DNA of 64,000 bases, taken from assembly GCA_964541225.1 (NCBI GenBank), contig CAZIPN010000003.1, positions 10,007 through 74,006 on the forward strand, given 5' to 3'. Source of the DNA: an uncultured Eubacteriales bacterium (GTDB lineage: Bacteria; Actinomycetota; Coriobacteriia; Anaerosomatales; JAAXUF01). The notes beneath the pieces were generated by a model, which did not search any database, was not told where the DNA came from, and was given only the letters and a program-made list of their open reading frames with translations. A program made the translations under genes and the position numbers. The number at the start of each line of letters is the position of its first letter. The stretch's first letter is position 1. Below, piece by piece: positions 14,664 through 33,897 of the stretch.

Positions 14664-14665
14664 GG

Positions 14666-18763: not shown

Positions 18764-19510
18764 CTACTGCGACACGCTGGTTGTCGCGGAATTCGCCTTC
18801 GTCACTGCGTTCTGCGCGCCCGCGCCGGGCGAACTCCCGCCCGCGCTCCCTGAGGCGCTTGAACCCGAACTCGTCGCGCCGGACGAACTCGCCCCCGGAA
18901 CAACGACTCTGCCACTCGCGATGAACGACACAACGGTGACCGACCCCGGAGCGCCGCTCGTGTCGGTCGACGCCGGCGGGGTCGCCCAGGTATTCCAAAC
19001 GGTGTTGTTGGCGCTCGTCAGCCACACGTCACTGAGTTCTGAGAGTTCACTGAGACGCACAAGCGTCTTGGCTACCGACTTGTACGCCACATTGTCGGAC
19101 TCACCCAGAGTACGCGGCGTATTCGCGGTAACGACTATCCCCGTCTTCTCATTGATAACCAGGGTATCGAGCCACACTTCATCCGGGAGCACTAGCGAGA
19201 TGTCATTGGCCACTTGCCCAATGTTGGCCCGGCCGGCCAGAGCTGACTGTGCGACAGTCTCACGCTGTTGAAGTTGCTCCTCCTTGTTGCGGAAGATGGA
19301 AAGTTGTTGAGCGGTCGTCGAGTACCGCTTCGTCTGCTCCTGGATGGACTGCAGATCGTTTCGTTTCGAATTCACATCGAACATGAGAAGGAAGTAGAGC
19401 CCCGCGACGATGACTAGGAGAACGACTGCCGCAACGAAAATACGTGGGTACCAGTCCTCGTATCTGCGACGTTCCAGCACTTCCTGCGGGAGCAGGTTTA
19501 TCTTGAACAT
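18764..19510 (-). CDS. pilN: Type IV pilus assembly protein PilN
   Basis: MFKINLLPQEVLERRR is the conserved PilN INLLP motif. A TM helix and coiled coil follow. The gene directly abuts pilM and pilO. Confidence 0.8.
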   Translation of the reverse strand: MFKINLLPQEVLERRRYEDWYPRIFVAAVVLLVIVAGLYFLLMFDVNSKRNDLQSIQEQTKRYSTTAQQLSIFRNKEEQLQQRETVAQSALAGRANIGQVANDISLVLPDEVWLDTLVINEKTGIVVTANTPRTLGESDNVAYKSVAKTLVRLSELSELSDVWLTSANNTVWNTWATPPASTDTSGAPGSVTVVSFIASGRVVVPGASSSGATSSGSSASGSAGGSSPGAGAQNAVTKANSATTSVSQ

Positions 19511-20635
19511 CTACGCCAACTCCCCGAGCGCCAACCCGATGGCCGGAGCACAACCCATCCTATCCGCGAGAACAGCCTGCTCCACGTTCCCTGATGCCGA
19601 CACATGCGAGAGCGGATCGCCGACCACAACTTGCGTCTGCAGTCCCTTCTCCAAGTAGCCCGCGAGGTTGTTGAGCTGCGAACCCGTACCCGTAAGGTAG
19701 ATGCGGGTGATAGTCCGAGCCTGAGTGGCCTGCGTCAAGTAGTAGTCGAGAGAGCGCCGAACCTCGGCGATGAACTTGTTTCCCTCTCGCTCGAGCGCCT
19801 CCTGAGCAGATCGCACATTCGCGTCCGAGATCTCAGGGGAGACCCCCCCGGCTGCGTTCACATCGGGCAAGCCAGCCTGCGACTTCAAGACCTCGGCCTC
19901 ATCAAACGTCAGATTCAACACGTTGGCCACAGCCTGCGTGAATTGATTGCCTGCGAAGGACGAAACGCGAGTGAATCGCGGGATTCCTCGCTCGACAACC
20001 GCAATATTGGTCAAACCCGAGCTAACGTGCACGATGCCGACTGCCTCGCTTGGATTCTCTCCACCTTCATTGAACCAGCTGGGGGTCGTTCCAAGCAGAG
20101 CTCGCACGAGTGCAAATGCGGTGACGTCGACTTGCGCCAGTCGCAACCGCGCGCCCTCAACCGCCTGCACCGCACTTGACACGATCTCGCTTGGCGCTGC
20201 TACCAAGAGCACTTCCATCATGTGCTCGTCGGCTGGCGTCATGTACTCACCGATGATCTGGAAGTCCAGAATGGCCTGATCAACCGGGTATGGAATGTAG
20301 TCTTGGGCCTGGTACTGGATCGCCTTGCTCAGCTCGTCCTTCTCCATGAACTGCAAGTCGATCAGACGGACTACGACTTTCTGACTCGATATCCCGATCG
20401 CGACATCAGAGATCTTGAATCCGTGACGGCGCCACAGTTCTCGGAGTGCTCCCGAGACAGCCTCGGGATCAACGATTTCGCCTTCGACAACAGCTCCAAA
20501 AGGCATGGCTACCCAGCCGTAGTTCGTGAGAACAGGACCGTTGCTCGTCGACTTGATCTGAGCAGCACGAATGAAGTCGGTCCCTATGTCGAGACCCACA
20601 GGTGGTTGCGGGGCGCCGAGAAATCCGGGTGCCAA
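19511..20635 (-). CDS. pilM: Type IV pilus assembly ATPase-fold protein PilM
   Basis: 374 aa with an actin-like/FtsA-like fold pattern (GLDIGT..IR.A, VDV.A.AL.R, LTGTGSQL..L). TTG start at 20635 with GGAGGAGGG 8 nt upstream. Confidence 0.85.
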   Translation of the reverse strand: MAPGFLGAPQPPVGLDIGTDFIRAAQIKSTSNGPVLTNYGWVAMPFGAVVEGEIVDPEAVSGALRELWRRHGFKISDVAIGISSQKVVVRLIDLQFMEKDELSKAIQYQAQDYIPYPVDQAILDFQIIGEYMTPADEHMMEVLLVAAPSEIVSSAVQAVEGARLRLAQVDVTAFALVRALLGTTPSWFNEGGENPSEAVGIVHVSSGLTNIAVVERGIPRFTRVSSFAGNQFTQAVANVLNLTFDEAEVLKSQAGLPDVNAAGGVSPEISDANVRSAQEALEREGNKFIAEVRRSLDYYLTQATQARTITRIYLTGTGSQLNNLAGYLEKGLQTQVVVGDPLSHVSASGNVEQAVLADRMGCAPAIGLALGELA

Positions 20636-20704
20636 CGCTTACCCTCCTCCGATTGCTACTACGTCTAGTCTGCGAATACAGCTGTAGCGATGGTCCCGTG
20701 GCAG

Positions 20705-20735
20705 ACTATACCACATACATCAGCACTGCCTGCAA
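20705..20735 (-). promoter_or_regulatory. Candidate sigma-70-type promoter for pilMNO
   Basis: The minus strand reads TTGCAG-N19-TATAGT with an extended TGg upstream of the -10. It is ~70 nt upstream of the pilM TTG start, in a lower-GC stretch. Confidence 0.3.
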
Positions 20736-20900
20736 TCCTTGCAGAAACCGCCCCTGAACTGCTGTTTAGCCCTTTTGCACGCTCTTGATTCGAGCCCTCT
20801 TCGCACGCACTCTATCGCGTACGCCAGTCCATCCGAGCGGTACTACCCTCTTGCTCTGCATGTGTATCGACACCACGACCGATCGACTCAAGCCCTTTCT

Positions 20901-20916
20901 TGTGACGAATGTCACG
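20901..20916. promoter_or_regulatory. CRP/FNR-type inverted repeat in the pilin/pilM intergenic region
   Basis: TGTGACGAATGTCACg matches TGTGA-N6-TCACA at 9/10 positions. A GCATGCTC-c-GAGCATGC palindrome lies 7 nt away (20923..20939). Confidence 0.35.
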
Positions 20917-21037
20917 GAACTTGCATGCTCCGAGCATGCCACTCTCTGTTGAGGAATCCAATGCCATTTAGACAGGAGCACGATTCCGCACGTGCGCGAC
21001 GAACAGAATGCGCCTACGCGCCCAAAGTGCTGAGCCT

Positions 21038-21436
21038 TTAGCGATAGAGCCCGTGTGTTGTCGAGCAGTCCGAACCACCGGTTGGCAGGACGACGTGCCC
21101 GTGGACATCGTAGCCATAGGCGTAGGTCGAAGTCGGCGCCCCATTGGCGAGCGGACATGTCGGCCAAGCCCGGAGGTAGCCAGCGGCAATGAGGGGACAC
21201 GTGTCGCCTGCTGTGGTACCCGCTGCAATAGCGGGAGGAGAGGCATCCGCAGCCATTCGGTACGACTGCAAGGCACCTTCGATCGTGCGCTGATTCGCGA
21301 AACACGCTTTTTGCTTCACGGAGGCGTCTGGCGCACTGAATACCGGAACGGCTATGGCAACCAGAAGCCCAATGATCAGCACAACGACCGTGAGTTCGAC
21401 GAGGCTGAAGCCCGCGTCTCTGCACGATTCCTTCAT
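21038..21436 (-). CDS. Type IV pilin, paralog 2 (short-leader prepilin)
   Basis: MKESCRDAG|FSLVELTVVVLIIGLLVAIAVPVF has a 9-aa leader, Gly-1, Phe+1 and Glu+5. ATG at 21436 has GGGGGAGG upstream. It shares KACFAN.RT.EG...SY and a C-terminal DVHG with the other pilin. Confidence 0.8.
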   Translation of the reverse strand: MKESCRDAGFSLVELTVVVLIIGLLVAIAVPVFSAPDASVKQKACFANQRTIEGALQSYRMAADASPPAIAAGTTAGDTCPLIAAGYLRAWPTCPLANGAPTSTYAYGYDVHGHVVLPTGGSDCSTTHGLYR

Positions 21437-21534
21437 CCGATACGCCTCCCCCATGAGCAGAACACGCTGCTGGTATGTATCGACGTCGCGCCGAGCACAC
21501 TGAAGGCTACATTCCGCGCCCCAACATCCCAACG

Positions 21535-22380
21535 CTAGCCCGCAAGGTGGACCAGACCCGAATACCAGGACCACAGTTCCGGTCCATACAGCGTGGCAAC
21601 AACGGCCCCCGCGGCAATGAATGGCCCGAAGGGGAATTTGTGTTGCCCACCCTGACCGCTGCGTACTGCGGACGCGATTCCGTATGCGGATCCCAGCAGG
21701 ACTGCGGCGAACAATGCCACGAGCGAATACAAGCCCAGGTAGAGGCCAATCGCGGCCAGCAGCTTGACGTCCCCAAACCCGTACCCTTGGGCCTTCCGAA
21801 TCCGGGAGTACACGAACCCGAGCGCGAAGATCGGTACAGCCGCGACGAGCGCACCTGCCGCAGACGCCACAAGTGGTTGACCCAGCAATCCAGATGCACC
21901 GGTGGCAAACGGAACGATCTTGACGTGGGTGAACTGAGAGACCGCTGATCCCGCCACGCCGACGGCGGCAAGTGATCCCACCAGCGAATTGAGCAACCGC
22001 ATGGTATCCACATCAATGAACGCAAGAAGTAGAAGCAGGTAAAACATGGCAATGGCGGCAACCGCAGTCGGCGTCATCCCAAACCTGAGTCCCGCGAGGA
22101 ACCACAGGACCCCGGAGAGAAGCTCCACAAGCGGGTACCGCAACGGTATGGGCTGTTTGCAGCCTCTGCACTTCCCTCCCAGCACCATCCACGAGATCAA
22201 GGGCACGTTGTCATACCATGCGATGGGAGAACCGCAGTTGGGACAGTGAGACCCGGGGTGCGCAAGCGATTCACCCCTCGGGAGACGCCAGATGACGACG
22301 TTTCCAAACGAGCCAAACACAAGGCCGAACAGGAAGAGAGCTGCCTCATAGAGGGCCGCATTCGCGCTGATGCCAATCAC
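21535..22380 (-). CDS. pilD: Prepilin peptidase / N-methyltransferase (A24 family)
   Basis: 281 aa. Cys-rich N-terminal domain (HCPNCGSPI...CRGC), polytopic membrane region, catalytic Asp contexts IDVDT and GFGDVKLL. GTG start at 22380. Confidence 0.85.
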   Translation of the reverse strand: MIGISANAALYEAALFLFGLVFGSFGNVVIWRLPRGESLAHPGSHCPNCGSPIAWYDNVPLISWMVLGGKCRGCKQPIPLRYPLVELLSGVLWFLAGLRFGMTPTAVAAIAMFYLLLLLAFIDVDTMRLLNSLVGSLAAVGVAGSAVSQFTHVKIVPFATGASGLLGQPLVASAAGALVAAVPIFALGFVYSRIRKAQGYGFGDVKLLAAIGLYLGLYSLVALFAAVLLGSAYGIASAVRSGQGGQHKFPFGPFIAAGAVVATLYGPELWSWYSGLVHLAG

Positions 22381-22474
22381 CCAACACTTCCATCATTCTC
22401 AGGGCTCGTGCCAGGGCACAGCCAACCGCTATCTGCTTCAGGCGCGCGTGACTCGTCACCCGCAGAATACGCAA

Positions 22475-22500
22475 CAGAGGCTGGCGATCGCCAGCCTCTG
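22475..22500 (-). terminator. 26-nt perfect palindrome after pilin gene (candidate terminator/attenuator)
   Basis: CAGAGGCTGGCGA|TCGCCAGCCTCTG gives up to a 13-bp GC-rich stem, 45 nt downstream of the pilin stop (22545). It is followed on the minus strand by UUGCGUAUUCUG. This arrangement is typical for major-pilin genes, allowing read-through into pilD. Confidence 0.5.
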
Positions 22501-22544
22501 CTAGGTTCTTCTTCGAGAACCAACACGCTCATGTACTGCTGCAG

Positions 22545-22931
22545 CTAGTCAGTGTAGTTCCCGTGGACATCGCAATCCATCGTTACGGAGTTGCCGCCGG
22601 TGCCAACGGTGAACGTATAGACGCCATTAGCCGGACACGATGCGGTCGTCTTGACGTACGTGGGCACAAATGTGCCGCCGTCGGGGTCAGCGATGGCCTC
22701 GAACGCGGCCTGAGTCATGTCCCCAGCTGTCTGGGGCGTGCCGCCGGAACCCAGGTAGGACTGGTAGCCGCCCTCATACGTACGCTCATTCGCGAAACAG
22801 GCCTTCGTCTGCGCACTCTTCTTCGCGGCATTGAAGATCGGAACGGCGATCGCAACAAGGATACCGATAATAAGCACGACGACCATGAGTTCCACGAGAG
22901 TGAAGCCCTCGTCCTTGCGGAATGTATTCAT
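22545..22931 (-). CDS. pilA: Type IV pilin, paralog 1 (probable major pilin)
   Basis: MNTFRKDEG|FTLVELMVVVLIIGILVAIAVPIF has a 9-aa leader, Gly-1, Phe+1 and Glu+5. ATG at 22931 follows a consensus AAGGAGGTG RBS. It has its own upstream 257-nt intergenic region and a downstream hairpin. Confidence 0.85.
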   Translation of the reverse strand: MNTFRKDEGFTLVELMVVVLIIGILVAIAVPIFNAAKKSAQTKACFANERTYEGGYQSYLGSGGTPQTAGDMTQAAFEAIADPDGGTFVPTYVKTTASCPANGVYTFTVGTGGNSVTMDCDVHGNYTD

Positions 22932-23066
22932 GACCTCGCACCTCCTTCCCCTTTGTAGGGATAGCGTGGGCAACCTGATGCTGTCCACTTGTGACAACGT
23001 GTGTATCGGTCGACCTCTCGGCGACTTGAGCATTCTCGGCACATTTCACCAAAGAACGCGCTCGCA

Positions 23067-23082
23067 CGTGACGCGGGTCACA
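23067..23082. promoter_or_regulatory. CRP/FNR-type inverted repeat upstream of the probable major pilin gene
   Basis: cGTGACGCGGGTCACA matches TGTGA-N6-TCACA at 9/10 positions. Its centre is ~143 nt upstream of the pilin ATG. Confidence 0.35.
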
Positions 23083-23188
23083 CTCTCCGAGGTTGTCGCG
23101 GCAACATGTCTCGTCCGACCAGCCATCGAACGTAGGTCCGCAGGAACCCTCCGGTAGTCCCGCCGTAAGCGACGGTTCAGAGGCGACG

Positions 23189-24409
23189 TCACTTGACGAG
23201 TGTGACGACCTGGAACATGGGAAGGTACAGCGCGATGATCATCCCACCGACGATGACGCCGAGAGTGGCCATCATGAGGGGCTCAATCAGAGATGTCAGA
23301 CCATCGGTTGCGGTAGCGACTTCCTCATCGTAGAAGTCGGCAACCTTGTTGAGCATGGTATCGAGCGCACCCGTTTCTTCGCCAACACCAATCATCTGGA
23401 CAACCATAGAGGGAAAGACCTTCGACTCCGCCAGTGGCTTGGCCAGGGTCTCCCCTTCTTTGATCGCCGAGCGTGCGTGCCGAACCGCACCCGCAACGAT
23501 GTTGTTGCCTGAAGTGTCCGCGACAATGTCAAGCGCAGTCAGGATGGGTACGCCAGCGGAAACCAGTGTGCCGAACGTCCGGCAGAATCGGGCGAGGGCG
23601 ATCTTTCGGACCATCGAGCCGAACACAGGCATGTTGAGCTTGGCTGCGTCCCAGATTGTCTTGCCCGGACCACGTGACCACCACCGGAAGCCGAAGACGA
23701 TGCCCGCCAATGCGACAAGTACCACCAGTCCACCCCACCCCGCAACGAAGTGCGATGCGACTACCAGTGCTTGGGTTACGGCGGGCAGCTCCCCTCCCAT
23801 ATCGTGGAACATCTTCTCAAACGTCGGCACGACGAAGATCATCATTGCCGCCATGACTATGAGGACGAGAGATCCCATGGCGATTGGATAGGTCATCGCG
23901 GACTTCACTTTGGCCCGCAGCGCAAGTTCAGACTCCAGGTGATCCGCCACACGCTGCAGAACCTCGTCAAGCACACCGCCGGTCTCACCAGCGCGAACCA
24001 TGTTCACGAAGATCGGAGGGAACGTCTTCGGGTGCTTGGCAAGTGAATCTGACAGCGATTGCCCGGCCTCCACGTCCTTGCCCAGCTGAGCGATGATCTC
24101 GCGAAGCCCCGCGCTCTCGGTCTGCTGGGAGAGGATCGTCAGGCACTTGGTGAGAGAGAGTCCCGCATTGATCATCGTTGCGAACTGACGCGCGAATATG
24201 GAGACGTCCTTCGACTTAACCCCACTGCCGATCTTGAGCTCGCCAAGTTGCGACAAGGCGCTCTGCTGATCAAGCTCGAGAATGATGTAACCCATCTGAG
24301 CCAGACGGGCCTGCACAGCATCCTTGTTGTCGCCATCAAGCCGACCTTTGACCACCTTGCCGGCCTTGTCGCGAACTGAGTATATGAATGTCGCCATGAT
24401 CTCTCCCAA
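23189..24409 (-). CDS. pilC: Type IV pilus inner-membrane platform protein PilC (GspF family)
   Basis: 406 aa with two GspF-type repeats (FARQFATMINAGLSL...; FCRTFGTLVSAGVPIL...GEETG.LD..L). Confidence 0.9.
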   Translation of the reverse strand: MGEIMATFIYSVRDKAGKVVKGRLDGDNKDAVQARLAQMGYIILELDQQSALSQLGELKIGSGVKSKDVSIFARQFATMINAGLSLTKCLTILSQQTESAGLREIIAQLGKDVEAGQSLSDSLAKHPKTFPPIFVNMVRAGETGGVLDEVLQRVADHLESELALRAKVKSAMTYPIAMGSLVLIVMAAMMIFVVPTFEKMFHDMGGELPAVTQALVVASHFVAGWGGLVVLVALAGIVFGFRWWSRGPGKTIWDAAKLNMPVFGSMVRKIALARFCRTFGTLVSAGVPILTALDIVADTSGNNIVAGAVRHARSAIKEGETLAKPLAESKVFPSMVVQMIGVGEETGALDTMLNKVADFYDEEVATATDGLTSLIEPLMMATLGVIVGGMIIALYLPMFQVVTLVK

Positions 24410-24428: not shown

Positions 24429-26180
24429 TCAGACGATGACGCGCATGACCTCTTCTATCGAAGTCATGCCTTGCCTGGCCTTCTCAAGCCCATCTTGTCG
24501 CAGGGTCAGCATGCCTTGATCGATCGCGACTTGCTTGATCTCTTCAGCTGTTGCGTTCTCCACACACAGCCTGCTGATTTCCTCACTCATCATCAGCACT
24601 TCGTGGACCCCGACTCGCCCTCGATACCCCGTGTTTCCGCACTTCTTGCAACCCACAGCGCGATACACGACCTCAGGTAGATTGTCGGCAGGGTAGCCCG
24701 CATCTATGAGGACTTCGGGCTTCGGCCGCCACTCCTCTTTGCAGTCAGGACACAGCCTGCGCGCCAGCCGTTGGGCCAGAACGCAGTCAACTGCCGAGGA
24801 CACAAGGAACGGCTCGACCCCCATCTCCGTTAGACGGGTTACTGCGCCCGCCGAGTCGTTGGTGTGCAAAGTGGACAACACCAAGTGCCCGGTCAACGCG
24901 GACTCAACAGCAATCTGCGCGGTCTCCTCGTCACGAATCTCGCCCACCAGAATCACGTCTGGCGAACAACGCAGGAAGGAGCGAAGTGCTCGCGAGAAGG
25001 TCAATCCGGAACGAGCACTTACCTGACATTGGTTGATACCGGGGAGCCGGTACTCGACCGGGTCCTCGGCAGTCAGTATGTGCCGCGATGGGTTGTTCAG
25101 GACGTTGATCGCGGCATACAGGGTGGTCGACTTGCCAGACCCCGTTGGTCCCGTAACCAAGATCGCTCCGTACGGTTTGGTGAAGGACGCCTCGAACCGC
25201 TCAAGCGCCTGCGGCAGGAAGCCAAGATCGGTGAGCTGCAGCAGAATCGAGTCGGTTCTTAGAATACGCAGCACGATGCGTTCGCCGTAGACCGTCGGCA
25301 GAGTCGATACACGGAAGTCCAACTTGTGCCCGCCAACCGTGATCGCGCAGTGGCCGTCTTGCGGCTTGCGTGACTCGGCAATGTCCATTTCTGCCATGAT
25401 CTTGAAGCGGCTGATGATCGAGGTTTGAATGGCCTTTGGTGCTGGCGGCATGGCCTCGTGGAGCACGCCGTCGATGCGAAATCTCACGCGCAAGTCGTTC
25501 TCTTGTGGCTCTATGTGAATGTCAGACGCGCGGTCGGCAACGGCCTTCTGGATGATGTAGTTGACCAGTTTCACCGCCGGCGCCTCTTCGACGACGTCGG
25601 TGAGCTTGTCGAGATCCTGATCGCCGCCAAACTCGTCGACACCGGTCAGCAGTTCCGAGTCTTCTTGTTCTGCGACTTTGTAGTACTCATCGATGGCCGC
25701 GACTATGTCGTCCTTGGTGGAGATGGCCGGTTTGATGTCGTGGCCGGTGATGATGCGCAAGTCGTCGAGCGCGAGAACGTTCTGTGGATCGGCCATCGCG
25801 ACGACAAGAACGTCATCCACGAGTTCAATGGGCATCAGGATGTAACGCGCGGCAAGGTCTCTGCTTACCAGTGCGACGGCCGCAGGCTGTGGACGTCGCT
25901 CGGAGAAGTCGATGTACTCGATACCGATCTGACGCGCCATGACGGAGAGAATGGCACCCTGACTTGCGTAGCCAAGATCTACGAGCACGCGTCCGATCGG
26001 GCTTCCCGTCGCGCGGTACACTTCCAGCGCGTCGTTGAGCTGCTTCTCGGTGATAATCCCGGCCCGCATCAACAACTGACCGAGTCTCTGCCCAGTTTCC
26101 GCCACCAGCGACCTCTTTAGAGATTGCGCTCCCCAACAAGGCGACGCGCTCACGACATTGGAGGCCGGTGCTTCGCGCAT
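24429..26180 (-). CDS. pilB: Type IV pilus assembly ATPase PilB (GspE family), copy 1
   Basis: N-terminal T2SE_N/MshEN-like domain (RLGQLLMRAGIITEKQLNDALEVY-RATGS-PIGRVLVDLGYASQGAILSVMARQ), Walker A GPTGSGKST, VGEIRD, TGHLVLSTLHTN, tetra-Cys CPDC...CKKC. The start is set at the ATG at 26180, 16 nt after the upstream stop. The 250-codon Pro-rich extension of the track ORF is an out-of-frame shadow of 26197..27480. Confidence 0.85.
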   Translation of the reverse strand: MREAPASNVVSASPCWGAQSLKRSLVAETGQRLGQLLMRAGIITEKQLNDALEVYRATGSPIGRVLVDLGYASQGAILSVMARQIGIEYIDFSERRPQPAAVALVSRDLAARYILMPIELVDDVLVVAMADPQNVLALDDLRIITGHDIKPAISTKDDIVAAIDEYYKVAEQEDSELLTGVDEFGGDQDLDKLTDVVEEAPAVKLVNYIIQKAVADRASDIHIEPQENDLRVRFRIDGVLHEAMPPAPKAIQTSIISRFKIMAEMDIAESRKPQDGHCAITVGGHKLDFRVSTLPTVYGERIVLRILRTDSILLQLTDLGFLPQALERFEASFTKPYGAILVTGPTGSGKSTTLYAAINVLNNPSRHILTAEDPVEYRLPGINQCQVSARSGLTFSRALRSFLRCSPDVILVGEIRDEETAQIAVESALTGHLVLSTLHTNDSAGAVTRLTEMGVEPFLVSSAVDCVLAQRLARRLCPDCKEEWRPKPEVLIDAGYPADNLPEVVYRAVGCKKCGNTGYRGRVGVHEVLMMSEEISRLCVENATAEEIKQVAIDQGMLTLRQDGLEKARQGMTSIEEVMRVIV

Positions 26181-26196: not shown

Positions 26197-27480
26197 TTAT
26201 CGGAACCGAGCGTTCTCCCCTTTAAGGTCGCCGAGAAGAACGTCGGCGTACTTGCGGAACTTCTCGTAGGTCTTTGTCCCGGCCTTGACGCCAACCCGAG
26301 ACTCCCCAAACCACATCTCGACCGGTGCAACCATCGTGAACTCGGCGTACTCGGCGCGCAGACCAAGCGGGAGTGCCTCCGGCGGGCGCTGGCTCGCGAG
26401 AGACGAACCCGCGGGCGTCTCCAGGTCGACCCGCACGTGCGCGCGCGGACGCACGTGTCGCGGCTCGGGCGAGACAGACGATGTCTGTGCGACGGGCGGC
26501 GCTGCCGCAGGCTCCGCAGCGCGAACGACTGTGGCAGGCCGGGTCTTGGGCACCTCAGGTGCGGGAGCCGGCTCGGGAACTGCAGGGGACACCCGCTCGG
26601 GCGCGACCGAGGGAACGGGCGCTGGGATGGACAAGGGAGGGGCCGCAGGGACGGCCGCAGGCGCAGGTGAGGGTATCGGACGCGGGGCTGGCGCTGGCAT
26701 CGGCTCGGGCTCGGGCTCGGGGGCCGGTATCGGCTCGGGTGCGGGCGCTGAGGGCGGCTCGGGTGCGGGGGCCGAGGGCGGCTCGGGTGCGGGGCCGGGG
26801 GTGGGCTCGGGTGCGGGGGCCGGTATCGGCTCGCGCGACACGGCTGGAGTCGGAGCGGGTTCTGGAATCCACTCAAAGGTGGGAGCAGGCACAACCGCAA
26901 CCGGCTGCGGCGCTTCCAGGCCCGTGTCATGAACTACTTGCGGGACAATGGATTCCAACTCCAAGGTCGCGGGTGCCGGCGGCCTGAGCGACGGCGTGGG
27001 CGAAGGTGGCACTTCCCCGCCGCCCGCTGGCGCGACAACGGGCGGTTGAGCCGGAGGCTCCAGCGGTGCTGGCGGCGTGACCGGAGACGCAGGCGCAGGC
27101 TGTGAGCGCGCCGCAGCCGATCCACCGGTCGTGGACGCAGGTTCGGGGGGCTTGAACGAACCAATGCGCTCGGCAAGCGAGACTTCCCCAAGGCGGCTCG
27201 CCGGAGCAGGTTCGGCGGCGGGTTCCCAATTGCCGACCTTGAGTGGAGCGCGTAGCGACGCGCTGAGGCTATCGGGGTTCATCGGCAAGTCGAGCCCTTC
27301 GAGACTCGCGTCGATGACGCGGTCGGGAGCTGGCGGGAGAGCTGGCCACTCGCCAGGCTGCTGGACCGGCTCGAACTCCTCGTGCTTGCGTGCCGAGCGA
27401 ACAACTGCTGAGAGAAACGCTACCAGCGCGACGAACACGAAGAGGAGCGCCGCTGCGAGGATAGCAAGACGCACCTCCAC
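26197..27480 (-). CDS. Proline-rich single-pass membrane protein (function unknown; part of GTPase cassette)
   Basis: 427 aa. N-terminal TM helix LAILAAALLFVFVALVAFLSAVV, about 300 aa of P/A/E-rich sequence with PAPEPPSA repeats, and a non-repetitive C-terminal block MVAPVEMWFGESRVGVKAGTKTYEKFRKYADVLLGDLKGE. A 2-nt gap from the GTPase stop suggests translational coupling. Confidence 0.6.
   Translation of the reverse strand: MEVRLAILAAALLFVFVALVAFLSAVVRSARKHEEFEPVQQPGEWPALPPAPDRVIDASLEGLDLPMNPDSLSASLRAPLKVGNWEPAAEPAPASRLGEVSLAERIGSFKPPEPASTTGGSAAARSQPAPASPVTPPAPLEPPAQPPVVAPAGGGEVPPSPTPSLRPPAPATLELESIVPQVVHDTGLEAPQPVAVVPAPTFEWIPEPAPTPAVSREPIPAPAPEPTPGPAPEPPSAPAPEPPSAPAPEPIPAPEPEPEPMPAPAPRPIPSPAPAAVPAAPPLSIPAPVPSVAPERVSPAVPEPAPAPEVPKTRPATVVRAAEPAAAPPVAQTSSVSPEPRHVRPRAHVRVDLETPAGSSLASQRPPEALPLGLRAEYAEFTMVAPVEMWFGESRVGVKAGTKTYEKFRKYADVLLGDLKGENARFR
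26722..26835. repeat. 24-nt tandem repeat (~4.6 copies) encoding PAPEPxxA octapeptides
   Basis: The core cggctcgggtgcggg recurs at 26731, 26755, 26779 and (gggctcgggtgcggg) 26803 with exact 24-nt phase. It lies inside the proline-rich CDS. Confidence 0.8.
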
Positions 27481-27482
27481 GG

Positions 27483-28010
27483 CTACTCCATGCTCTTGAG
27501 GATCTCGTACAGCAGCCCAAGCAGTGCTGCCTTCACCGAATCGCGACTGCGAGCATCTACGGGCAAGAGAGGGGTGTCGTCGGTGAGCTCCAGGTCCGAA
27601 CGCACTCTGCGCAGTGTCTCCTGATCGTCGGCCGAAACCTTGTTCGCGGCAACGATGAATGGCACGTCGGACATCTCTGTGAAGAACCGGATCATGCCTC
27701 GGGTGTCTTCGAACGTGCCGGGTTCATCGGCATCAACCAGCACCACGAAACCGAGCATGCCTTCGGAAAGTGTCTCCCACATGAAGCTGAATCGCTCCTG
27801 CCCGGGAGTCCCAAAGAGGTAGAGCACGACGTCGTCAGAGACCGTGATGCGTCCGAAGTCCATGGCGACAGTCGTCTCACCGTCGCCCTCCCCCGCTGCG
27901 GCACTGATCTGCCGCTCGGTCGAGAGTACGGTGATCTCGCTCACCGACTTGATGAACGTCGTCTTCCCCGCATTGAATGGACCTGTGACAACTACTTTGA
28001 CGGACTGCAT
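27483..28010 (-). CDS. Small P-loop GTPase, CvnD/MglA-like (COG2229-type)
   Basis: 175 aa. G1 is GPFNAGKT. TTVAMDFGRI and LYLFGTPGQERFSFMW follow the Streptomyces CvnD pattern closely. The switch II box lacks Asp, as in MglA. G4 is degenerate (NKVS). Confidence 0.8.
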   Translation of the reverse strand: MQSVKVVVTGPFNAGKTTFIKSVSEITVLSTERQISAAAGEGDGETTVAMDFGRITVSDDVVLYLFGTPGQERFSFMWETLSEGMLGFVVLVDADEPGTFEDTRGMIRFFTEMSDVPFIVAANKVSADDQETLRRVRSDLELTDDTPLLPVDARSRDSVKAALLGLLYEILKSME

Positions 28011-28027
28011 GCGGTCAGGCTCTTCCT

Positions 28028-30469
28028 CTACAGGCTCTTGATACCATCAATGATCTTCATCAGCGTGTCACGATCGACACGCGCGTCTCGGCGAAGCAGC
28101 GCTTCACCTTCGGCCGGCAGCTTCCGGACACTCGCCGATGGCCTCACTGGACGATCGGCACCGGTCAGTGCCGACAGCTCGTCGGTGAGTTCACCGGAGA
28201 AACTGAAATCCTTCTCCAGCGTCAGGTCGTCGAGATACGCATCCGTGGAGATCACACCCGCAGTGGGCTCTGATGGCTCCTCAAGCAGCGGATTCAACTC
28301 GGCCTCGGGCGCTGGAGCGGCCTCAGCGGCGCCAGCATTCTGCGCATCATCGGCGCTGATATCCAGCGATTCCAGCAAGGCCGAAAAGTCCGCCTCTCCG
28401 CCGACTTCTTGGCCAGCCACGCTGGCAGCCGCCTGCGATGCGGCGACTTCCTCGGACGGCCCCGCGATGCCCATCGGTTCGACAACCGGCTCAAACCCGG
28501 GCGCCTCGGCCTGGGTCTCAGGCACGACCTGCAATTCCTCAGCAGGCGCCTCAGACGCCGGTGCGGTTGGCTCTTCGGATTCGGCGAGTTCTGCTGGCAT
28601 CTCGCCCAGCCCGAGCGCCATCAGGTCATGCTCGAAATCGCCCGGTTGCCCCGCCTCAGCGGTTGGAGCGACCGGGCTGGCCTCGGCGGTCGGCTCAGGT
28701 ACTGCCTCGGTCTCGGGGAATGCGGCCTCGGCCTCAGCAGCGGACACCGCCTCGGGTGAGACAGCCTCCGGCTCACCGGCAGCTACGACCTCAGGAACGA
28801 CGCTGGAGAGAGGCTCAACCTCGGTGACCGCCTCCTCTTCCCCCGGCACCCCCTCGGATTCTGCAGCAGCGGGAACGATGACGAACGTGCCCGGCTCAAG
28901 CGGCGGTGCTGGCTCCGGCGTGACACTTGGTTCTTCGAGGGCCTCGGCAACCGACTGCAACTCGGGCGCGAGTTCGTGCACCGTCACCGGCTCAGGCTCT
29001 GCGGTCTCTTCCGGTGCGGCTTCAGGTGCAGCAGCTTCGAGGACGGTCTCCTCGGCCGACACTTCGGGTGGTGCCTCAGCAGGGACCTCGGGGGCGGCAG
29101 CTTCAGGTGGTGCCTCGGCAGGGACCTCGGGAGCGACCTCAGCAGAGGCCTCGGGCGCGGCGGCCTCAGGTGGTGCCTGGCGAGCGGCCTCGGGTTGCTC
29201 CTCGGGGGCAACCTCCGCTTCCAGCTCGATCGGGGCTTCCTCGGCAGGCGGCGCGAGTTCGGTGAGATCGCCGAGCAACTCCTCGACCGACGGCACCGAG
29301 AGATCTGGACCGGCCTGCGCTTCCTGCGACGCGGCGATGAACGCCGGTTCCTCGCCGGGCGTGTACGGAGCTGCCGGCTTCTTCTCGGCGGGAGCGGCGG
29401 GCTCATGGGGCGCATGCTCCAGCACGGCGCCCATCGCGGCCTCGAGTGCCGCGATATCCTCGGCGGTCGCGGGTTGTGGCTCCGCCCCCAGAAACGTCGG
29501 TACCTCGGCCGCAGCGGCAGGACCGCTCGTGGCTTCGCGCGCGGCTTCCGCCGACTCCTCAGCACCTTGCTCCTCGGCGACTTGGGCCTCGGCGACTTGG
29601 GCTTGCGCGGGGGCAGTCACCTCGGGTTCCTCGGCGACGTGCGGAGCGGCAGCCTGTTCGGCCTCAAGCTCGGCCGCCCTCTGCTTGTCCAACTCCGCTT
29701 GCTTCGCCTCTCGCTCAAGGCGCTCGGCGCGCAAGGCGACGGCTTCTTCGTCGGAGGCAAACTCAAGAAGACCTGCCGAGAACAGACCGTAGACGACGCG
29801 CGCCACCTCAAAATCGGTGGTGTTGATGGCGACCGCAAGCTCAGCAACGGATCGGCTGCCGTCCACGAGCAACAGCAGGTTCCACTCAATCGGCTTCAGG
29901 GATATCTCGAACGTGCCTTCCCCTGGTGCCGTGGCCATCTTGAAAACGATGTCGGTGGACGGGATCTTCTTCTTGATCCGATTCCACTCTTCGAGACGTC
30001 GGCTTCCCTCCATGATCACGTTCTCGATGGAGACGGTCAGGCCGATGTCTTCTTCCAGGGCTTCGGGCATGGCTTCGAACTCGAAATCGCCGTCGTCCCA
30101 GCGCATGAGGTCGAAGATGGTGTCCTGAATCTGCTCCTGTACAAAGACCTCGAGCACCTCATCCGTGATGTAGCCTTCTTCGACAAGAATCTCGCCGAGG
30201 CGCTTTCCACCTTCCGGTTCCGCAGCCCTAAGCTCCAGTGCCCTCTCAAGCGCCATCGGCGTGATGCGCTGCGCGCGCACGAGACGCTCGCCGAGCGGTT
30301 CCGTGCGCCAATTTGACTGGGCGAAGAACACATCCCCCTCGCGGAACCACACGCTGCCCTGTGCGCCGTCTTCTCGGCGAATGCGCAGCACACCGGTCTT
30401 CCCGCTGAAAGTGACCAGCTGGAAGATATCCGGGAGACTCAGTTCCTTGAGATTGCCACGCAATGCCAC
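28028..30469 (-). CDS. DUF4388/PATAN-domain protein with T2SE_N/MshEN-like segment and ~500-aa acidic low-complexity region
   Basis: The N-terminus GNLKELSLPDIFQLVTFSGKTGVLRIRREDGAQGSVWFREGDVFFA fits DUF4388. Next comes LGERLVRAQRITPMALERALELR...KRLGEILVEEGYITDEVLEVFVQEQ (GspE-N-like). A long A/E/P-rich region follows, then a short conserved-looking C-terminus. GTG start at 30469. Confidence 0.75.
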   Translation of the reverse strand: MALRGNLKELSLPDIFQLVTFSGKTGVLRIRREDGAQGSVWFREGDVFFAQSNWRTEPLGERLVRAQRITPMALERALELRAAEPEGGKRLGEILVEEGYITDEVLEVFVQEQIQDTIFDLMRWDDGDFEFEAMPEALEEDIGLTVSIENVIMEGSRRLEEWNRIKKKIPSTDIVFKMATAPGEGTFEISLKPIEWNLLLLVDGSRSVAELAVAINTTDFEVARVVYGLFSAGLLEFASDEEAVALRAERLEREAKQAELDKQRAAELEAEQAAAPHVAEEPEVTAPAQAQVAEAQVAEEQGAEESAEAAREATSGPAAAAEVPTFLGAEPQPATAEDIAALEAAMGAVLEHAPHEPAAPAEKKPAAPYTPGEEPAFIAASQEAQAGPDLSVPSVEELLGDLTELAPPAEEAPIELEAEVAPEEQPEAARQAPPEAAAPEASAEVAPEVPAEAPPEAAAPEVPAEAPPEVSAEETVLEAAAPEAAPEETAEPEPVTVHELAPELQSVAEALEEPSVTPEPAPPLEPGTFVIVPAAAESEGVPGEEEAVTEVEPLSSVVPEVVAAGEPEAVSPEAVSAAEAEAAFPETEAVPEPTAEASPVAPTAEAGQPGDFEHDLMALGLGEMPAELAESEEPTAPASEAPAEELQVVPETQAEAPGFEPVVEPMGIAGPSEEVAASQAAASVAGQEVGGEADFSALLESLDISADDAQNAGAAEAAPAPEAELNPLLEEPSEPTAGVISTDAYLDDLTLEKDFSFSGELTDELSALTGADRPVRPSASVRKLPAEGEALLRRDARVDRDTLMKIIDGIKSL
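29062..29180. repeat. Imperfect 39-nt tandem repeat inside the acidic region (PEVPAEAPPEAAA units)
   Basis: 29062..29100 and 29101..29139 match at 33/39 positions. A third partial copy starts near 29164. Confidence 0.6.
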
Positions 30470-30510
30470 TTAGGTATCCGCCCCATGGTGTGATGGAGAA
30501 TTCAAGGCCG

Positions 30511-31131
30511 TCAGCCGAGAATCTCGGCGATCGTGTCGGCCGTATCTCGCATGTCGTACAGTACGAGCCCGAGCTTCGCCTCAACATCGGCGATGCACGT
30601 CAGCACCGCCTTGTCACCTGCGGCGATGAGCATCACGTAGCCGGTCTCCCCTTCGATGAAGACCTGCGTGAGAGCGCCCCGCCCGAGCTCAGCCGCCGCT
30701 CGCTCGCCGAGCCCAAGGATGGCCGCTGACATCGCACCAACGCGGTCGTCTTGCATGCTGTCTGGCAAAGCCGCAGCCATCGTGAATCCATCCAGCGAAA
30801 CAAGGGCCGCAGCCAACACCTCCTGGTTGTTCTCCATGAGCGCGTCAAGCGCTGCCGCCAGGCGTTCCTCACGACTCGGGCGGTGAGCCACTGCGGCAGC
30901 GCGCGGTTCAGGCGCAGGCGCTTGGACTGGGGCAGGCTCAACAGGAGCGGGAACCTCTGCCGGGGGAGCCGCCGCGGTCGAAACGGGCGGTTCGGCAGGC
31001 GGAGCCGCTTGGGCAGGAGCTTGGGCGGGAGAGCCCGGCACTACAACGGGCGCCGGGAGCAACTCGTCGTCTTCGGCGAAAGCGTCGTCTCCGTCGCTTA
31101 GGAAGAAATCGCCAAATGCATTGTCCGCCAC
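30511..31131 (-). CDS. Roadblock/LC7 (MglB/CvnB-like) domain protein with P/A-rich N-terminal region
   Basis: The C-terminal ~115 aa (LDALMENNQEVLAAALVSLDGFTMAAALPDS...GAMSAAILGLGERAA...VFIEGETGYVMLIAAGDKAVLTCIADVEAKLGLVLYDM) fits Robl/LC7. GTG start at 31131 with GGAGGTG 8 nt upstream. Confidence 0.75.
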   Translation of the reverse strand: MADNAFGDFFLSDGDDAFAEDDELLPAPVVVPGSPAQAPAQAAPPAEPPVSTAAAPPAEVPAPVEPAPVQAPAPEPRAAAVAHRPSREERLAAALDALMENNQEVLAAALVSLDGFTMAAALPDSMQDDRVGAMSAAILGLGERAAAELGRGALTQVFIEGETGYVMLIAAGDKAVLTCIADVEAKLGLVLYDMRDTADTIAEILG

Positions 31132-31282: not shown

Positions 31283-32956
31283 CTAGACCACCACGCGAAG
31301 TATCTCTTCGATTGAGGTCAGGCCCATCTTCACCTTGGCGAATCCGTCGTCTCGCAGCGTGAGCATCCCTTCGTCAATCGCGGAGCGCGCCAACACGTCC
31401 GATGAAGCGTTCTCAACCGTAAGTCGCTCGAGGTTCTCCGACATCCGCATGACCTCGTGAATACCCATCCGGCCCTTGTAGCCGATGTCGTTGCACTTCT
31501 TGCATCCGCGAGCTCGATAGAGCTTCGGTGGATTCCCTGGCTCGAAGGGGAAGCCTATGCGAGTCAGCACCGCCTCCTCGGGCGTGTACTGTTCCTTGCA
31601 ATCGGGGCACAGGCGCCGAGCCAGTCTCTGAGCCATGACAAGCGTGATCGCGGACGCCGAAAGGAACGGCTCGATGCCCATCTCGGTGAGCCTCGTGATC
31701 GCCGAGGGCGCATCGTTGGTATGCAGCGTCGACAGCACGAGATGTCCGGTGAGCGCCGCCTCGATGGCGATCGTGCCAGTCTCCTTGTCGCGGATCTCGC
31801 CGATCATCACCTTGTCCGGGTCCTGCCTCAGGATGGAACGCAGGGCAGACGCGAACGTGAGTCCGGCCTTCTCGTGAACTTGCACCTGAGACAGGCCCGC
31901 AAGCCTGTACTCAACCGGATCCTCGACAGTGATGAGGTTCGTCTTGGGATCGTTCGTTTCGTTGATCGCCGCATAGAGCGTGGTCGACTTACCCGAACCG
32001 GTTGGACCGGTGACCAAGATGGCGCCGTACGGAAGCGCGAGCGCTTCCAGCAGCATCCGCAGGTTGTACTCCAAGAAGCCCAGGTCTTTCAGCGACATCA
32101 TGATCGCGTCCCGGCGCAAGAGACGAAGCACAGCCATCTCGCCGTTCACTACGGGCAAGACCGCCACCCGGAAATCAACTGCTTTGCCGTCCAGTACCAC
32201 GCCGAAACGACCGTCCTGCGGTATGCGCCGCTCGGCGATATCCATGCCGCAGCTGATCTTCAGGCGGCTCACCAGCTGTCGATGCAGCTTCTTCGGCAGT
32301 GTGTTGACTACCTGGCACACACCGTCAATCCGAAAGCGAATGCGCAAGTCACGCTCACCCGGCTCGATGTAGATGTCGCCCGCACCGCTGCGGATCGCCT
32401 CGGTCACAATCTGGTTCATGAGCCGAACGACCACCGACTCGGCGCTTGCCTCCTCGGCTTCCTCCTCGGCCGCAACGCCAACCTGCTGTTCGAGGTCACC
32501 GACCATGTCGCCAACGTTTGTCTGCGAGGCGCTGAATCTCTCGATCGCCGAGAGTAGCTCGCTCTCCGCAGCAACGACCGGTCGAATCTCCCTGCCGGTG
32601 ACGATGCGCACGTCATCGATCGCGAAGATATTGGCCGGGTCGGCCATGGCAATGATGAGTTCGTCGTCTTGCACCTTGATCGGCAGGACAGCGTAGCGGC
32701 GCATCAGATCCAACTTGAGCAGAAGCGCTGCGTTTGGATCGATCTCGTAGGCTCCGATGTCGACGTAGGGCAAGCCCATGGATTCAGCCACGGCCTTGGC
32801 GACGGTGACTTCGTCGGCGAAGCCGAGTTCGTCAAGAACGTGCGGAAGCGGACGACCGTCAGCGACTGCCACTGCCTCGGCAAGTTGCTTGTCATCAATC
32901 AAGCCGGTGCCCACAAGGAGCCGGCCCAATCGCATGCTGTTGGCCGCTGCCGCCAT
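31283..32956 (-). CDS. Type IV pilus/T2SS-type assembly ATPase (GspE family), copy 2
   Basis: 557 aa. N-terminal T2SE_N-like domain (RLGRLLVGTGLIDDKQLAEAVAVA), Walker A GPTGSGKST, IGEIRD, TGHLVLSTLHTN, CPDC...CKKC. The full-length PilB architecture distinguishes it from the shorter PilT. Confidence 0.85.
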   Translation of the reverse strand: MAAAANSMRLGRLLVGTGLIDDKQLAEAVAVADGRPLPHVLDELGFADEVTVAKAVAESMGLPYVDIGAYEIDPNAALLLKLDLMRRYAVLPIKVQDDELIIAMADPANIFAIDDVRIVTGREIRPVVAAESELLSAIERFSASQTNVGDMVGDLEQQVGVAAEEEAEEASAESVVVRLMNQIVTEAIRSGAGDIYIEPGERDLRIRFRIDGVCQVVNTLPKKLHRQLVSRLKISCGMDIAERRIPQDGRFGVVLDGKAVDFRVAVLPVVNGEMAVLRLLRRDAIMMSLKDLGFLEYNLRMLLEALALPYGAILVTGPTGSGKSTTLYAAINETNDPKTNLITVEDPVEYRLAGLSQVQVHEKAGLTFASALRSILRQDPDKVMIGEIRDKETGTIAIEAALTGHLVLSTLHTNDAPSAITRLTEMGIEPFLSASAITLVMAQRLARRLCPDCKEQYTPEEAVLTRIGFPFEPGNPPKLYRARGCKKCNDIGYKGRMGIHEVMRMSENLERLTVENASSDVLARSAIDEGMLTLRDDGFAKVKMGLTSIEEILRVVV

Positions 32957-32959
32957 GGG

Positions 32960-33859
32960 CTAGCCACTCACCTCCGAGCCATTGCGGACCGCGAGTTCGC
33001 GTTGGGCTGCGGCGCGCATGGTCTCTCGCGGGGTTCGCACTTGCGCATCGGCATTCCAAATGTCTACGGCGGTCGCGCCCTGTGCGACAAGCATGCCGAG
33101 ACCATCAAGAACGTGCGCGCCAGCTTCGCGACCGCCAGTGACGAGCCGCGTGGGAACGGCGGTGCCATATACCATGTCCAGCACTACCTGACCTTCCGTC
33201 AGCCATTCCACCGGCACGGGACTCTCTGCCTCGGGATTCATTCCGACCGGGGTGGCGTTGATGACGAGGTCGGCAGCGCCAACCACGTCTTCGGCTTCCT
33301 CCTGAGTGACGGCATCCAAGTCGATGCCTCCCGCCCGAGGAGCCATTCTGTCGAGAAGTTCTTCGGCACGTTCGAGGCTGCGGTTAACCACTGTGATCCT
33401 GGCGCATTTCGCCAGAATCAGCGCGACGAATGCGCCAGCTGCCGCCCCGCCTGCTCCTAGGAGCACCACCGACTTGCCGGAAGGATCGAAACTGGCATCA
33501 GTCGAGAGTGACTCGAGCAAACCTCGGCCATCCGTGTTGTAGCCGATCAGCCGCCCATCTGAGGTGCAGTGCACAGTGTTCACCGCCCCGGCCATGCTTG
33601 CCGCCATGGCTACCTCATCACACAGTTCGAGGATCTCTTCCTTGTAGGGCATCGTGATGTTGAACCCCACGAATGGCAGCGAGCGTATCGCGGTGACAAG
33701 ACTTCTCAGCCCGCCCTCGTCCTGCACGGCGAGGGGAACGTAGACCCAGTCCAGTCCCAGCTCCTGATAGACCGCGTTGTGCATCGCCGGTGAGAGTGAG
33801 TGATCGAGTGGCCACCCGATCACTCCCGCCAGTCTGGTCGTCCCCTGGATGCGAGTCAT
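32960..33859 (-). CDS. aroE: Shikimate dehydrogenase
   Basis: GVIGWP..HSLSPAMHN, NITMPYK and GAGGAA motifs. The start is set at MTRIQG (ATG at 33859) behind GGGAGGAAGG. Confidence 0.9.
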   Translation of the reverse strand: MTRIQGTTRLAGVIGWPLDHSLSPAMHNAVYQELGLDWVYVPLAVQDEGGLRSLVTAIRSLPFVGFNITMPYKEEILELCDEVAMAASMAGAVNTVHCTSDGRLIGYNTDGRGLLESLSTDASFDPSGKSVVLLGAGGAAAGAFVALILAKCARITVVNRSLERAEELLDRMAPRAGGIDLDAVTQEEAEDVVGAADLVINATPVGMNPEAESPVPVEWLTEGQVVLDMVYGTAVPTRLVTGGREAGAHVLDGLGMLVAQGATAVDIWNADAQVRTPRETMRAAAQRELAVRNGSEVSG

Positions 33860-33897
33860 GGAACCTTCCTCCCGTTCGCACAAGACGGCGGCGCCGC

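Follow-up and report, generated by a model that had tools for sequence, protein, structure and literature searches.

Regulation of type IV pilus (T4P) extension in monoderm bacteria is largely uncharted, and the route from a small GTPase to the ATPase PilB has been worked out only in Myxococcus, with lineage-specific adaptors. There, the Roadblock protein MglB is the GTPase-activating protein (GAP) of the GTPase MglA, and MglA-GTP promotes the recruitment of PilB through an adaptor (PMC11580455). Other G-protein systems, the conservons (AGPS), regulate antibiotic production and fluoroquinolone tolerance. In the Mfp system, the DUF742 protein MfpC is the guanine nucleotide exchange factor (GEF) for the GTPase MfpB and the Roadblock protein MfpD is the GAP (PMC11343762; summarised in PMC13343842). 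Proteins with a PATAN domain (DUF4388) are widespread. According to later papers (PMC4316618 and the preprint of Han et al.), Makarova et al. reportedly described in 2006 an occasional association of PATAN genes with MglA/MglB homologs. The association was noted again in 2014, also as occasional. PATAN fragments of Synechocystis PixE, PixG and LsiR bind PilB1's N-terminal part as well as PilC's N-terminal domain, and suffice to redirect pilus activity (bioRxiv 10.1101/2021.06.11.447907). Here, we analysed a cassette of four minus-strand genes in a 64,000-nt stretch of an uncultured actinobacterial contig, hereafter the window. The cassette encodes a Roadblock protein, a PATAN protein, a small GTPase and a fourth protein, P4, and is followed by pilB and pilC. 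It is probably a GAP/GEF/GTPase switch docked on the PilB/PilC motor via the PATAN domain.

Conservons are among the closest known systems. We used eight annotated conservons as a reference; their genes follow the order kinase, roadblock, DUF742, ATP/GTP-binding protein, and the first gene is annotated in all eight as a NIT-domain protein, a histidine kinase or an ATP-binding protein. Like them, the module has a Roadblock protein resembling CvnB/MfpD and a GTPase 44-47% identical to CvnD, with shared TT, GTPGQ and DAR motifs; the stretch coding for a DUF742-like winged helix-turn-helix (wHTH) and C-terminal helix lies between these two genes, which is the gene order of conservons. It differs from conservons in that the CvnC-like part is fused behind PATAN and split by a ~520-aa acidic linker, in the G4 motif of the GTPase (NKVx, not NxFD), in the extra membrane protein encoded after the GTPase and in its position within a pilus operon. 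The kinase CvnA is missing from the module, the gene upstream of the Roadblock gene being a pilB in the window and aroE in most other loci. With the order cvnB-cvnC-cvnD shared, the module would therefore correspond to Roadblock, PATAN-CvnC-like and CvnD-like genes, without cvnA. A first-pass annotation of this DNA had proposed that the kinase and DUF742 partners of a conservon were both replaced. The kinase is indeed missing, but a DUF742-like part is retained, fused to PATAN.

Three other kinds of system share parts with the module. In Myxococcus xanthus and Thermus thermophilus, a small GTPase and its Roadblock GAP, MglA and MglB, control PilB and T4P through an adaptor (SgmX, SopA). In the window, however, the GTPase belongs to another MglA group, the adaptor would be a PATAN protein and not a TPR protein, the genes lie inside the pil operon and no RomR, RomX or RomY partner is present. 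The PatA-type (PATAN-REC) regulators PixE, PixG, LsiR and PilG also carry a PATAN domain with an alpha-clip, which binds the N-terminal domains of PilB1 and PilC and steers pili. Unlike them, the window protein has no REC domain, its proposed input comes from a G-protein module, and it carries a DUF742-like helix and a giant acidic linker. Finally, the alpha-clip resembles the MshEN receptor of MshE, PilB, PilF and NfrB, with a four-helix clip (rmsd 0.9 A) and a perfect motif II, but lies inside PATAN instead of at the N-terminus of an ATPase, and its motif I and spacer deviate. The module thus combines known kinds in a new way, and falls outside the conservons (no kinase, a different G4), group-1 MglA and the PatA-type regulators. 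In agreement with the first-pass annotation, no characterised system of this four-part composition was found in the literature searched. Nor did the same search reveal a report of near-universal embedding in actinobacterial pilus clusters, of a relation between PATAN proteins and DUF742 or of a P4 family.

Proteins of the cassette

The cassette is made of four co-directional ORFs, encoding the Roadblock/LC7 protein (30511..31131, 206 aa), the PATAN protein (28028..30469, 813 aa), the small GTPase (27483..28010, 175 aa) and P4 (26197..27480, 427 aa). Stop-to-start gaps are 41, 17 and 2 nt, and 16 nt separate P4 from the downstream pilB. In all four genes, GC content is lowest at codon position 2, and the annotated frames fit, low-complexity parts included. 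These ORFs and gaps are as the first-pass annotation had given them. HMM searches upheld its Robl_LC7 (PF03259, E 7e-17), DUF4388/PATAN (PF14332, PatA_N, E 1.4e-32) and GTPase assignments, and the organisation that it had described for P4, with one transmembrane (TM) helix, a P-rich stretch and a C-terminal block, was recovered. The DUF742/CvnC-like tail of the PATAN protein, the MshEN-type motif in PATAN and the P4 family motif, described below, were not part of it.

The Robl_LC7 domain spans residues 94-181 of the Roadblock protein (~30514-30852) and follows an A/P-rich acidic extension (residues 1-90, 30862-31131). Among solved structures, the best matches are to Robl_LC7 proteins of actinobacteria (7f8m_A, E 7e-23) and to CvnB5 (3leq). 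In its SLDGF, the protein has the DG pair that typifies the MglB partners of group 2-5 GTPases (PMC4316618). By analogy with CvnB and MglB, the protein is probably the GAP of the GTPase.

The small GTPase matches PF03029 (E 2.8e-18), Ras (E 8e-8) and TIGR00231. Its motifs are G1 GPFNAGKT, G2 ETTVAMDFG (with TT and without arginine finger), G3 GTPGQ, G4 NKVS and G5 DAR, the first four having been correctly read before. The earlier emphasis on NKVS in place of NKxD needs a nuance: the motif is there, but it is a local variant, close relatives having NKVD, NKVA, NKVP or NRTx, while NKQD is found in non-actinobacterial relatives and NxF[DHAY] in five CvnD. In the classification of Wuichet and Sogaard-Andersen (PMC4316618), TT in G2, GTPGQ in G3 and a coupled Roadblock protein with a DG pair characterise groups 2-5 of the MglA family. 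All three features are observed here, and the group-1 signatures, an arginine finger by G2 and TVPGQ, are missing. Identity to the pil-linked GTPases of other actinobacterial classes reaches 52-58%, as compared to 44-47% for CvnD of canonical conservons. In a neighbour-joining tree, CvnD is monophyletic in 175 of 200 bootstraps, and CvnD and the actinobacterial pil-linked GTPases group together in 113 of 200. The CvnD clade adjoins the pil-linked clade and does not enclose it. The branching order between the two is poorly resolved and, therefore, no firm claim can be made on which is ancestral. Because the GTPases linked to PATAN in Chloroflexia and Aquificota fall outside this group as a whole (113/200, a weak support), the conservon may equally be the derived form, and the evolution implied by the first-pass annotation, a conservon with replaced partners, is not supported. 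Overall, these comparisons place the window GTPase as the closest sister of conservon CvnD, within MglA-family groups 2-5. No solved structure was found for a CvnD-type GTPase.

The group to which the GTPase belongs bears on one alternative, a polarity oscillator in which the GTPase and the Roadblock protein sort to opposite poles and so mark the piliated one, with the PATAN protein as a polar adaptor functionally like SgmX. In Myxococcus, T4P polarity is established by MglA and MglB, and PilB is recruited there by MglA-GTP via adaptors (PMC11580455, PMC4316618). On one diderm contig, genes for PATAN, three Roadblock proteins and a GTPase of the group-1 MglA/SofG-like kind do stand next to pilB-pilT-pilC. 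The absence of both group-1 signatures from the window GTPase and of RomR-, RomX- or MglC-type partners speaks against such an oscillator, and reversal-type motility is doubtful since the window contains no pilT. We therefore consider it unlikely. It overlaps with the preferred reading, a GTPase switch docked on the motor, and differs from it only in invoking spatial instead of on/off control. The diderm contig (L008, 10001-19000; TamB/Omp85 present) deserves a description of its own. Its genes are comEC, PATAN, TPR/Roadblock, Roadblock, GTPase, Roadblock, pilB, pilT, pilC and a PAS kinase, and its 372-aa GTPase has DRTLYFDF, TVPGQ and a long C-terminal tail. The linkage of PATAN, GTPase and pil genes seen here, with a GTPase of the other MglA group, seems to be independent or very old.

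The PATAN core and its alpha-clip occupy residues 1-168 of the PATAN protein (29966..30469). The PF14332 match, at residues 4-163, sets 160 residues on a 122-position model and is interrupted by a helical insertion. In the AF2 model of residues 1-245 (pLDDT 91.9, pTM 0.84), the core has the order beta1-alpha1-beta2-beta3-beta4 ... beta5-alpha2, with a four-helix insert at 59-122 between strands 4 and 5. This insert is the alpha-clip known from PATAN proteins, placed by sequence at residues 58-113 (30131-30298). The alpha-clip aligns with the N-domains of MshE, PilB and PilF, and residues 58-113 match the curated NCBI model NF053729, 'c-di-GMP_motif, MshE-related' (E 1.4e-11, 44 bits against a cut-off of 38 bits). 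Using Foldseek, it superimposed on cyclic di-GMP (c-di-GMP)-bound MshE (5htl_B) over 59 columns, with an rmsd of 0.9 A and 29% identity. The MshEN consensus is composed of two tandem 24-residue motifs, RLGxxhhxxGhhxxxxLxxxLxxQ, separated by a 5-residue spacer (PMC5013675), and motif II of the alpha-clip is a perfect instance of it (RLGxxLVxxGYIxxxxLxxxVxxQ). No Response_reg match, hence no REC domain, was found in the PATAN protein, whose C-terminal part consists of the wHTH, an acidic linker and a terminal helix.

A beta-strand and the DUF742/CvnC-like wHTH follow the core (residues 169-245, 29735..29965). In the AF2 model, the wHTH unit covers residues ~190-240, with helices at 193-201, 208-214 and 219-231 and a strand at 235-237. 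An acidic A/E/P-rich linker of ~520 aa comes next (28145..29734; net charge ~-109; A 24%, E 21%, P 13%), presumed disordered, and separates the wHTH from the terminal helix in Coriobacteriia. Its length is highly variable, the orthologs measuring 231-1273 aa in total. In the model of a 366-aa Nitriliruptorales ortholog (P0188), the linker has a pLDDT below 50 and the terminal helix a pLDDT of 84-88. The protein ends with the helix motif RDARVDRDTLMKIIDGIKSL-COOH (28031..28090), which matches the C-terminal end of DUF742. A terminal motif, (R/T)D..V(D/N)..L(L/V)..(I/L)I.G(I/V)..L-COOH, is present in nearly all loci where the ORF is intact to the GTPase gene (58 ORFs), across Actinomycetota, Chloroflexia and Aquificota, and DUF742 proteins end in D..LL..(I/V).DGL..L-COOH. 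PATAN proteins that are not linked to a GTPase keep the wHTH without the terminal helix.

This resemblance was examined with hhalign, using the DUF742 proteins of the eight canonical conservons, a profile of eight sequences only. The N-terminal 250 aa gave an E-value of 1.1e-4, and unspliced short orthologs a probability of 89% (E 2.3e-6) over the wHTH. When the variable linker was removed, the probability was 93.5% (E 2.3e-7), with 74 columns aligned, reaching both C-termini. In control alignments, the reversed and 20 column-shuffled templates scored at most 15.9 (probability at most 0.9%), and the PATAN core alone scored 14.4. HMMs built from five or eight DUF742 sequences gave sub-threshold matches (E 0.07-9), enriched in PATAN ORFs at the right position. 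No solved structure was found for DUF742. We present the protein as PATAN fused to a putative, divergent homolog of CvnC, and not as a DUF742 protein. A natural fusion was also found: P0205 (L007, 10001-11221) joins PATAN-wHTH to a degenerate GTPase-like C-terminal half, 30% identical to residues 87-166 of the GTPase, in which the P-loop and G3 are lost. Its neighbours encode a GAF-GGDEF protein and a ParA-like ATPase, and no pil genes are nearby. This fusion is a Rosetta-stone hint of a direct contact between the PATAN protein and the GTPase.

A winged helix could also bind nucleic acid, in which case the module would control transcription or translation of the pil genes. The fold is predicted with high confidence and has weak MarR/HTH matches, and among conservons Cvn8 and Mfp are known to affect the expression or translation of genes (PMC13343842, PMC11343762). 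However, DUF742 was shown to bind the GTPase directly and to be its GEF (PMC11343762), PATAN regulators are membrane-localised and bind motor proteins, their authors arguing against DNA binding (bioRxiv 10.1101/2021.06.11.447907), and the partner P4 is membrane-anchored. Control of expression is thus improbable, as compared to a switch docked on the motor.

In P4, a hydrophobic N-terminal TM helix (residues ~5-27, 27400-27468) precedes a linker of ~330 aa with 28% proline and a conserved C-terminal block (residues 379-422, 26215-26346). The tail is predicted to be cytoplasmic by the positive-inside rule, because basic residues follow the TM helix. Neither P4 nor seven orthologs from other lineages match anything in Pfam or NCBIfam. 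The block contains a module of ~35 aa, V-E-L-x-F-x-D-G-S-x-h-x-L ... P ... F..hA..L, which reads VEMWFGESRVGVKAGTKTYEKFRKYADVLL in the window. An HMM of this motif, built from 15 seeds, matched in the window and in 56 of the 88 fetched loci, always in the ORF directly after the GTPase and on the same strand. Across lineages, P4 varies from 56 to ~530 aa, its P-rich linker from 0 to ~350 aa, and its N-terminus is also variable, being a TM helix in Coriobacteriia and in loci of Geothermocultor type, and a basic peptide, MRWLSRR..GRHA, in those of Nanopelagicales type. Loci of the Nitriliruptorales type, in which the GTPase gene adjoins pilB, lack the motif, as do 'Solincola' and the genomes from outside the phylum.

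Three of the four cassette proteins thus carry A/P/E-rich segments that are presumed disordered (30862-31131, 28145-29734 and 26371-27378). They are much expanded in the Coriobacteriia-like branch, where the PATAN protein has 813 aa vs 231-450 aa elsewhere, and P4 427 aa vs 56-190 aa.

Distribution of the module and its linkage to pilB

To survey the module, a GTPase alignment was scanned against one genome per GTDB species, which gave 592 confirmed relatives. The best 80 of these (47-90% identity) were taken with 10-kb flanks, and the window proteins were mapped by tblastn. Counts are given for evaluable loci. The GTPase itself has thousands of metagenome homologs above 80% identity, the named ones coming from metagenome-assembled genomes (MAGs) of uncultured Coriobacteriia, Anaerosomatales and 'Actinobacteria HGW', and contigs carrying an identical GTPase protein show the same synteny.

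The Roadblock-PATAN-GTPase trio was complete in all 57 evaluable actinobacterial loci. In addition, pilB lay within 10 kb downstream of the cassette in 50 of 51, as the proposed pil linkage predicted. In Coriobacteriia-like genomes, PATAN and Roadblock were upstream of the GTPase in 22/22 loci each, pilB downstream in 21/21, a second pilB upstream in 21/21 and the P4 motif in 23/23. In the other Actinomycetota, which include Nitriliruptorales, the Geothermincolia-type 'Solincola' and 'Geothermocultor', Nanopelagicales, Frankiales, Acidothermus and Mycobacteriales MAGs, PATAN and Roadblock were upstream in 35/35 loci each and pilB downstream in 29/30. There, the second pilB was found in 3/32 and the P4 motif in 27/38. 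The widespread order is aroE-Roadblock-PATAN-GTPase-(small protein)-pilB. With the same synteny found again in dozens of genomes, chance is a most unlikely source of the arrangement. Throughout the actinobacterial phylum, the module is strongly linked to pilB.

The remaining loci belong to Chloroflexia, Aquificota and one gammaproteobacterial MAG. PATAN and Roadblock were mapped upstream by tblastn in part of them, with no downstream pilB (0/6), second pilB (0/5) or P4 motif (0/8); the Roadblock/PATAN-GTPase module stands among unrelated genes, and no pil gene occurs within 10 kb (0/6). One could then argue that the module is a mere passenger among the aro and pil genes and has another target, e.g. 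division or development; the trio does exist away from pil genes in Chloroflexia and Aquificota, and PatA acts in heterocyst patterning. Yet in 50/51 loci, from several actinobacterial classes, the module has stayed adjacent to pilB while aroE, pilT and extra genes shuffle, and an independent biochemical link connects PATAN to PilB. We consider a purely positional association very improbable.

A different question is raised by the second pilB of the window. The first-pass annotation saw the cassette as inserted between two pilB genes and gating which PilB engages PilC. The two paralogs flank the cassette here and in 21/21 Coriobacteriia-like loci, and they do differ. The upstream one (31283..32956, minus strand; 557 aa; T2SSE E 2.2e-134, MshEN E 1.1e-24) ends 151 nt before the Roadblock gene and its product is 49% identical to that of the downstream one (24429..26180, minus strand; 583 aa; T2SSE E 4.3e-138), whose start at 26180 (MREAPAS...) was verified. 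Walker A and Cys motifs are intact in both, and the downstream PilB alone passes the NF053729 cut-off (38 bits), with 56 bits vs 24.3 bits for the upstream one. These points would favour a selector deciding which PilB ATPase occupies the PilC platform. However, 29 of the 32 other actinobacterial loci have the module with a single pilB, and in Nitriliruptorales the GTPase gene ends 12-81 nt before the sole pilB. The choice of a PilB paralog is therefore not the core function, and improbable as an account of the module; it is at most a lineage-specific elaboration. The upstream pilB is a lineage-restricted addition in the Coriobacteriia-like branch, so that neither the insertion between two pilB genes nor the gating holds in general. 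The downstream PilB is 53-61% identical to the products of the cassette-following pilB of other Actinomycetota, and its gene is the paralog common to the single-pilB lineages.

Some loci show variations of the arrangement. In Candidatus Solincola and relatives (L039, L040, L042, L048), the PATAN protein is giant (1081-1273 aa), its gene comes after three Roadblock paralogs in tandem, and the P4 motif is missing. In L061, L063 and L075, of Nanopelagicales-type and other Actinomycetota, extra genes lie between P4 and pilB (similar gaps in L065 and L069), the largest extra ORF encoding ~600-650 aa with strongly hydrophobic segments.

A proposed switch at the pilus motor

The reading that we favour, a switch docked on the PilB/PilC motor, would work as follows. 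The CvnD-like GTPase would cycle between GTP and GDP. The Roadblock protein would act as its GAP, as do MglB and MfpD/CvnB, and the DUF742/CvnC-like wHTH with the C-terminal helix would have the GTPase as their target and most likely serve as its exchange factor, as does MfpC. The PATAN domain would dock the switch on the N-terminal region of PilB and on the cytoplasmic domain of PilC, in the manner of Synechocystis PixE, PixG and LsiR. For the alpha-clip, an MshEN-type four-helix bundle, possible partners are c-di-GMP and PilB's MshEN domain, c-di-GMP being a possible input at both the alpha-clip and PilB. P4 would be a bitopic tether, its ~35-aa module holding the GTPase or the PATAN complex at the membrane by the pilus base. 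As a net output, the nucleotide state at the motor would license or block PilB-PilC engagement and so determine when, and possibly where, pili extend. We infer the contacts, the signal direction and the output of the switch from characterised relatives, starting from the domain identities, the synteny and the DUF742-like tail observed in the loci.

Several points weigh against this reading. Every protein-protein contact in it is transferred from distant homologs. The PilB1-binding PATAN fragment of Synechocystis (residues 1-258) probably includes the wHTH, which makes it ambiguous which sub-part binds what. The similarity to DUF742 comes from profile-profile scores obtained with eight DUF742 sequences, and the Pfam DUF742 model gave no match to the PATAN protein even at an E-value of 10. 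The guanine-specifying Asp is missing from G4 of the GTPase (NKVS), so that its nucleotide preference is uncertain. In the alpha-clip, motif I departs from the MshEN consensus, with P for R and Q in place of the turn Gly, and does not fit the relaxed pattern at two positions (PMC5013675); the spacer has 8 residues instead of 5, and the RLG is lost altogether in Nanopelagicales-type orthologs. Binding of c-di-GMP is therefore rated as possible only, the alpha-clip being a tentative candidate. Co-transcription of the cassette with the pil genes is suggested by the short gaps; a promoter/terminator scan of 16000-34500 gave counts not above those of shuffled sequences. Finally, the occurrence of the trio without pil genes outside Actinomycetota shows that the module is not intrinsically pilus-specific.

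If the proposed switch is correct, the module would give a compact, operon-encoded route from a GAP, a GEF and a GTPase to PilB and PilC, via a domain shown to bind both. It is testable in more than one organism since it occurs across many actinobacterial classes. It also ties two subjects, the conservons and the PATAN proteins, and the CvnC-like tail provides a concrete GEF hypothesis for the whole PATAN-GTPase association. A more far-reaching scenario, which we find rather doubtful, is that the pil-linked module is ancestral to conservons: DUF742 would be the PATAN tail minus PATAN, and CvnA would have been added later. The GEF would then be tethered to PilB/PilC via PATAN, activation of the GTPase would be confined to the motor, and the alpha-clip would sense c-di-GMP as the input, which would make the module a G-protein relay assembled on a pilus motor.

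The pilus cluster and its surroundings

On the minus strand of the window, the order is aroE (32960..33883), upstream pilB, Roadblock, PATAN, GTPase, P4, downstream pilB, pilC (23189..24409, directly after pilB), pilin (22545..23042), prepilin peptidase (21535..22380), one uncharacterised gene, pilM (19511..20635), a pilN-sized gene, pilO (18143..18763) and then aroC-aroK-aroB-aroQ (14211..17606). The pilus cluster downstream of the cassette (18143..24409) is of the monoderm type, with PilB, PilC, a pilin with N-methylation motif, a prepilin peptidase, PilM and PilO. Genes for PilT, a secretin or a GGDEF protein are absent from the 64-kb window. A PilT-like ATPase is encoded between pilB and pilC in most other Actinomycetota and in several Coriobacteriia-like genomes; loci listed with this pilB-pilC region are L018, L020, L021, L026, L028, L031, L033 and L079.

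Two ORFs inside the cluster have no Pfam match (20766-21500, 244 aa, and 17513-18136, 207 aa). In related loci, the place between the peptidase gene and pilM holds larger unannotated genes and a second pilin-like gene.

The GC-rich linkers also yield long overlapping ORFs in other frames, of up to 833 aa (26158-26990 and 28038-30316 on the plus strand, 24429-26930 on the minus strand), which are most likely not genes. The 833-aa ORF (24429-26930) corresponds to the true pilB with a spurious N-terminal extension of 250 aa over P4. We also considered that the P/A-rich ORFs of the cassette could be GC artefacts; this was ruled out by their cross-lineage conserved ends and by GC content per codon position.

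The whole pilus cluster sits inside a shikimate-pathway operon (14211-33883). Most other actinobacterial loci also have aroE immediately upstream of the module, and in 'Solincola' loci it is placed between the GTPase gene and pilB.

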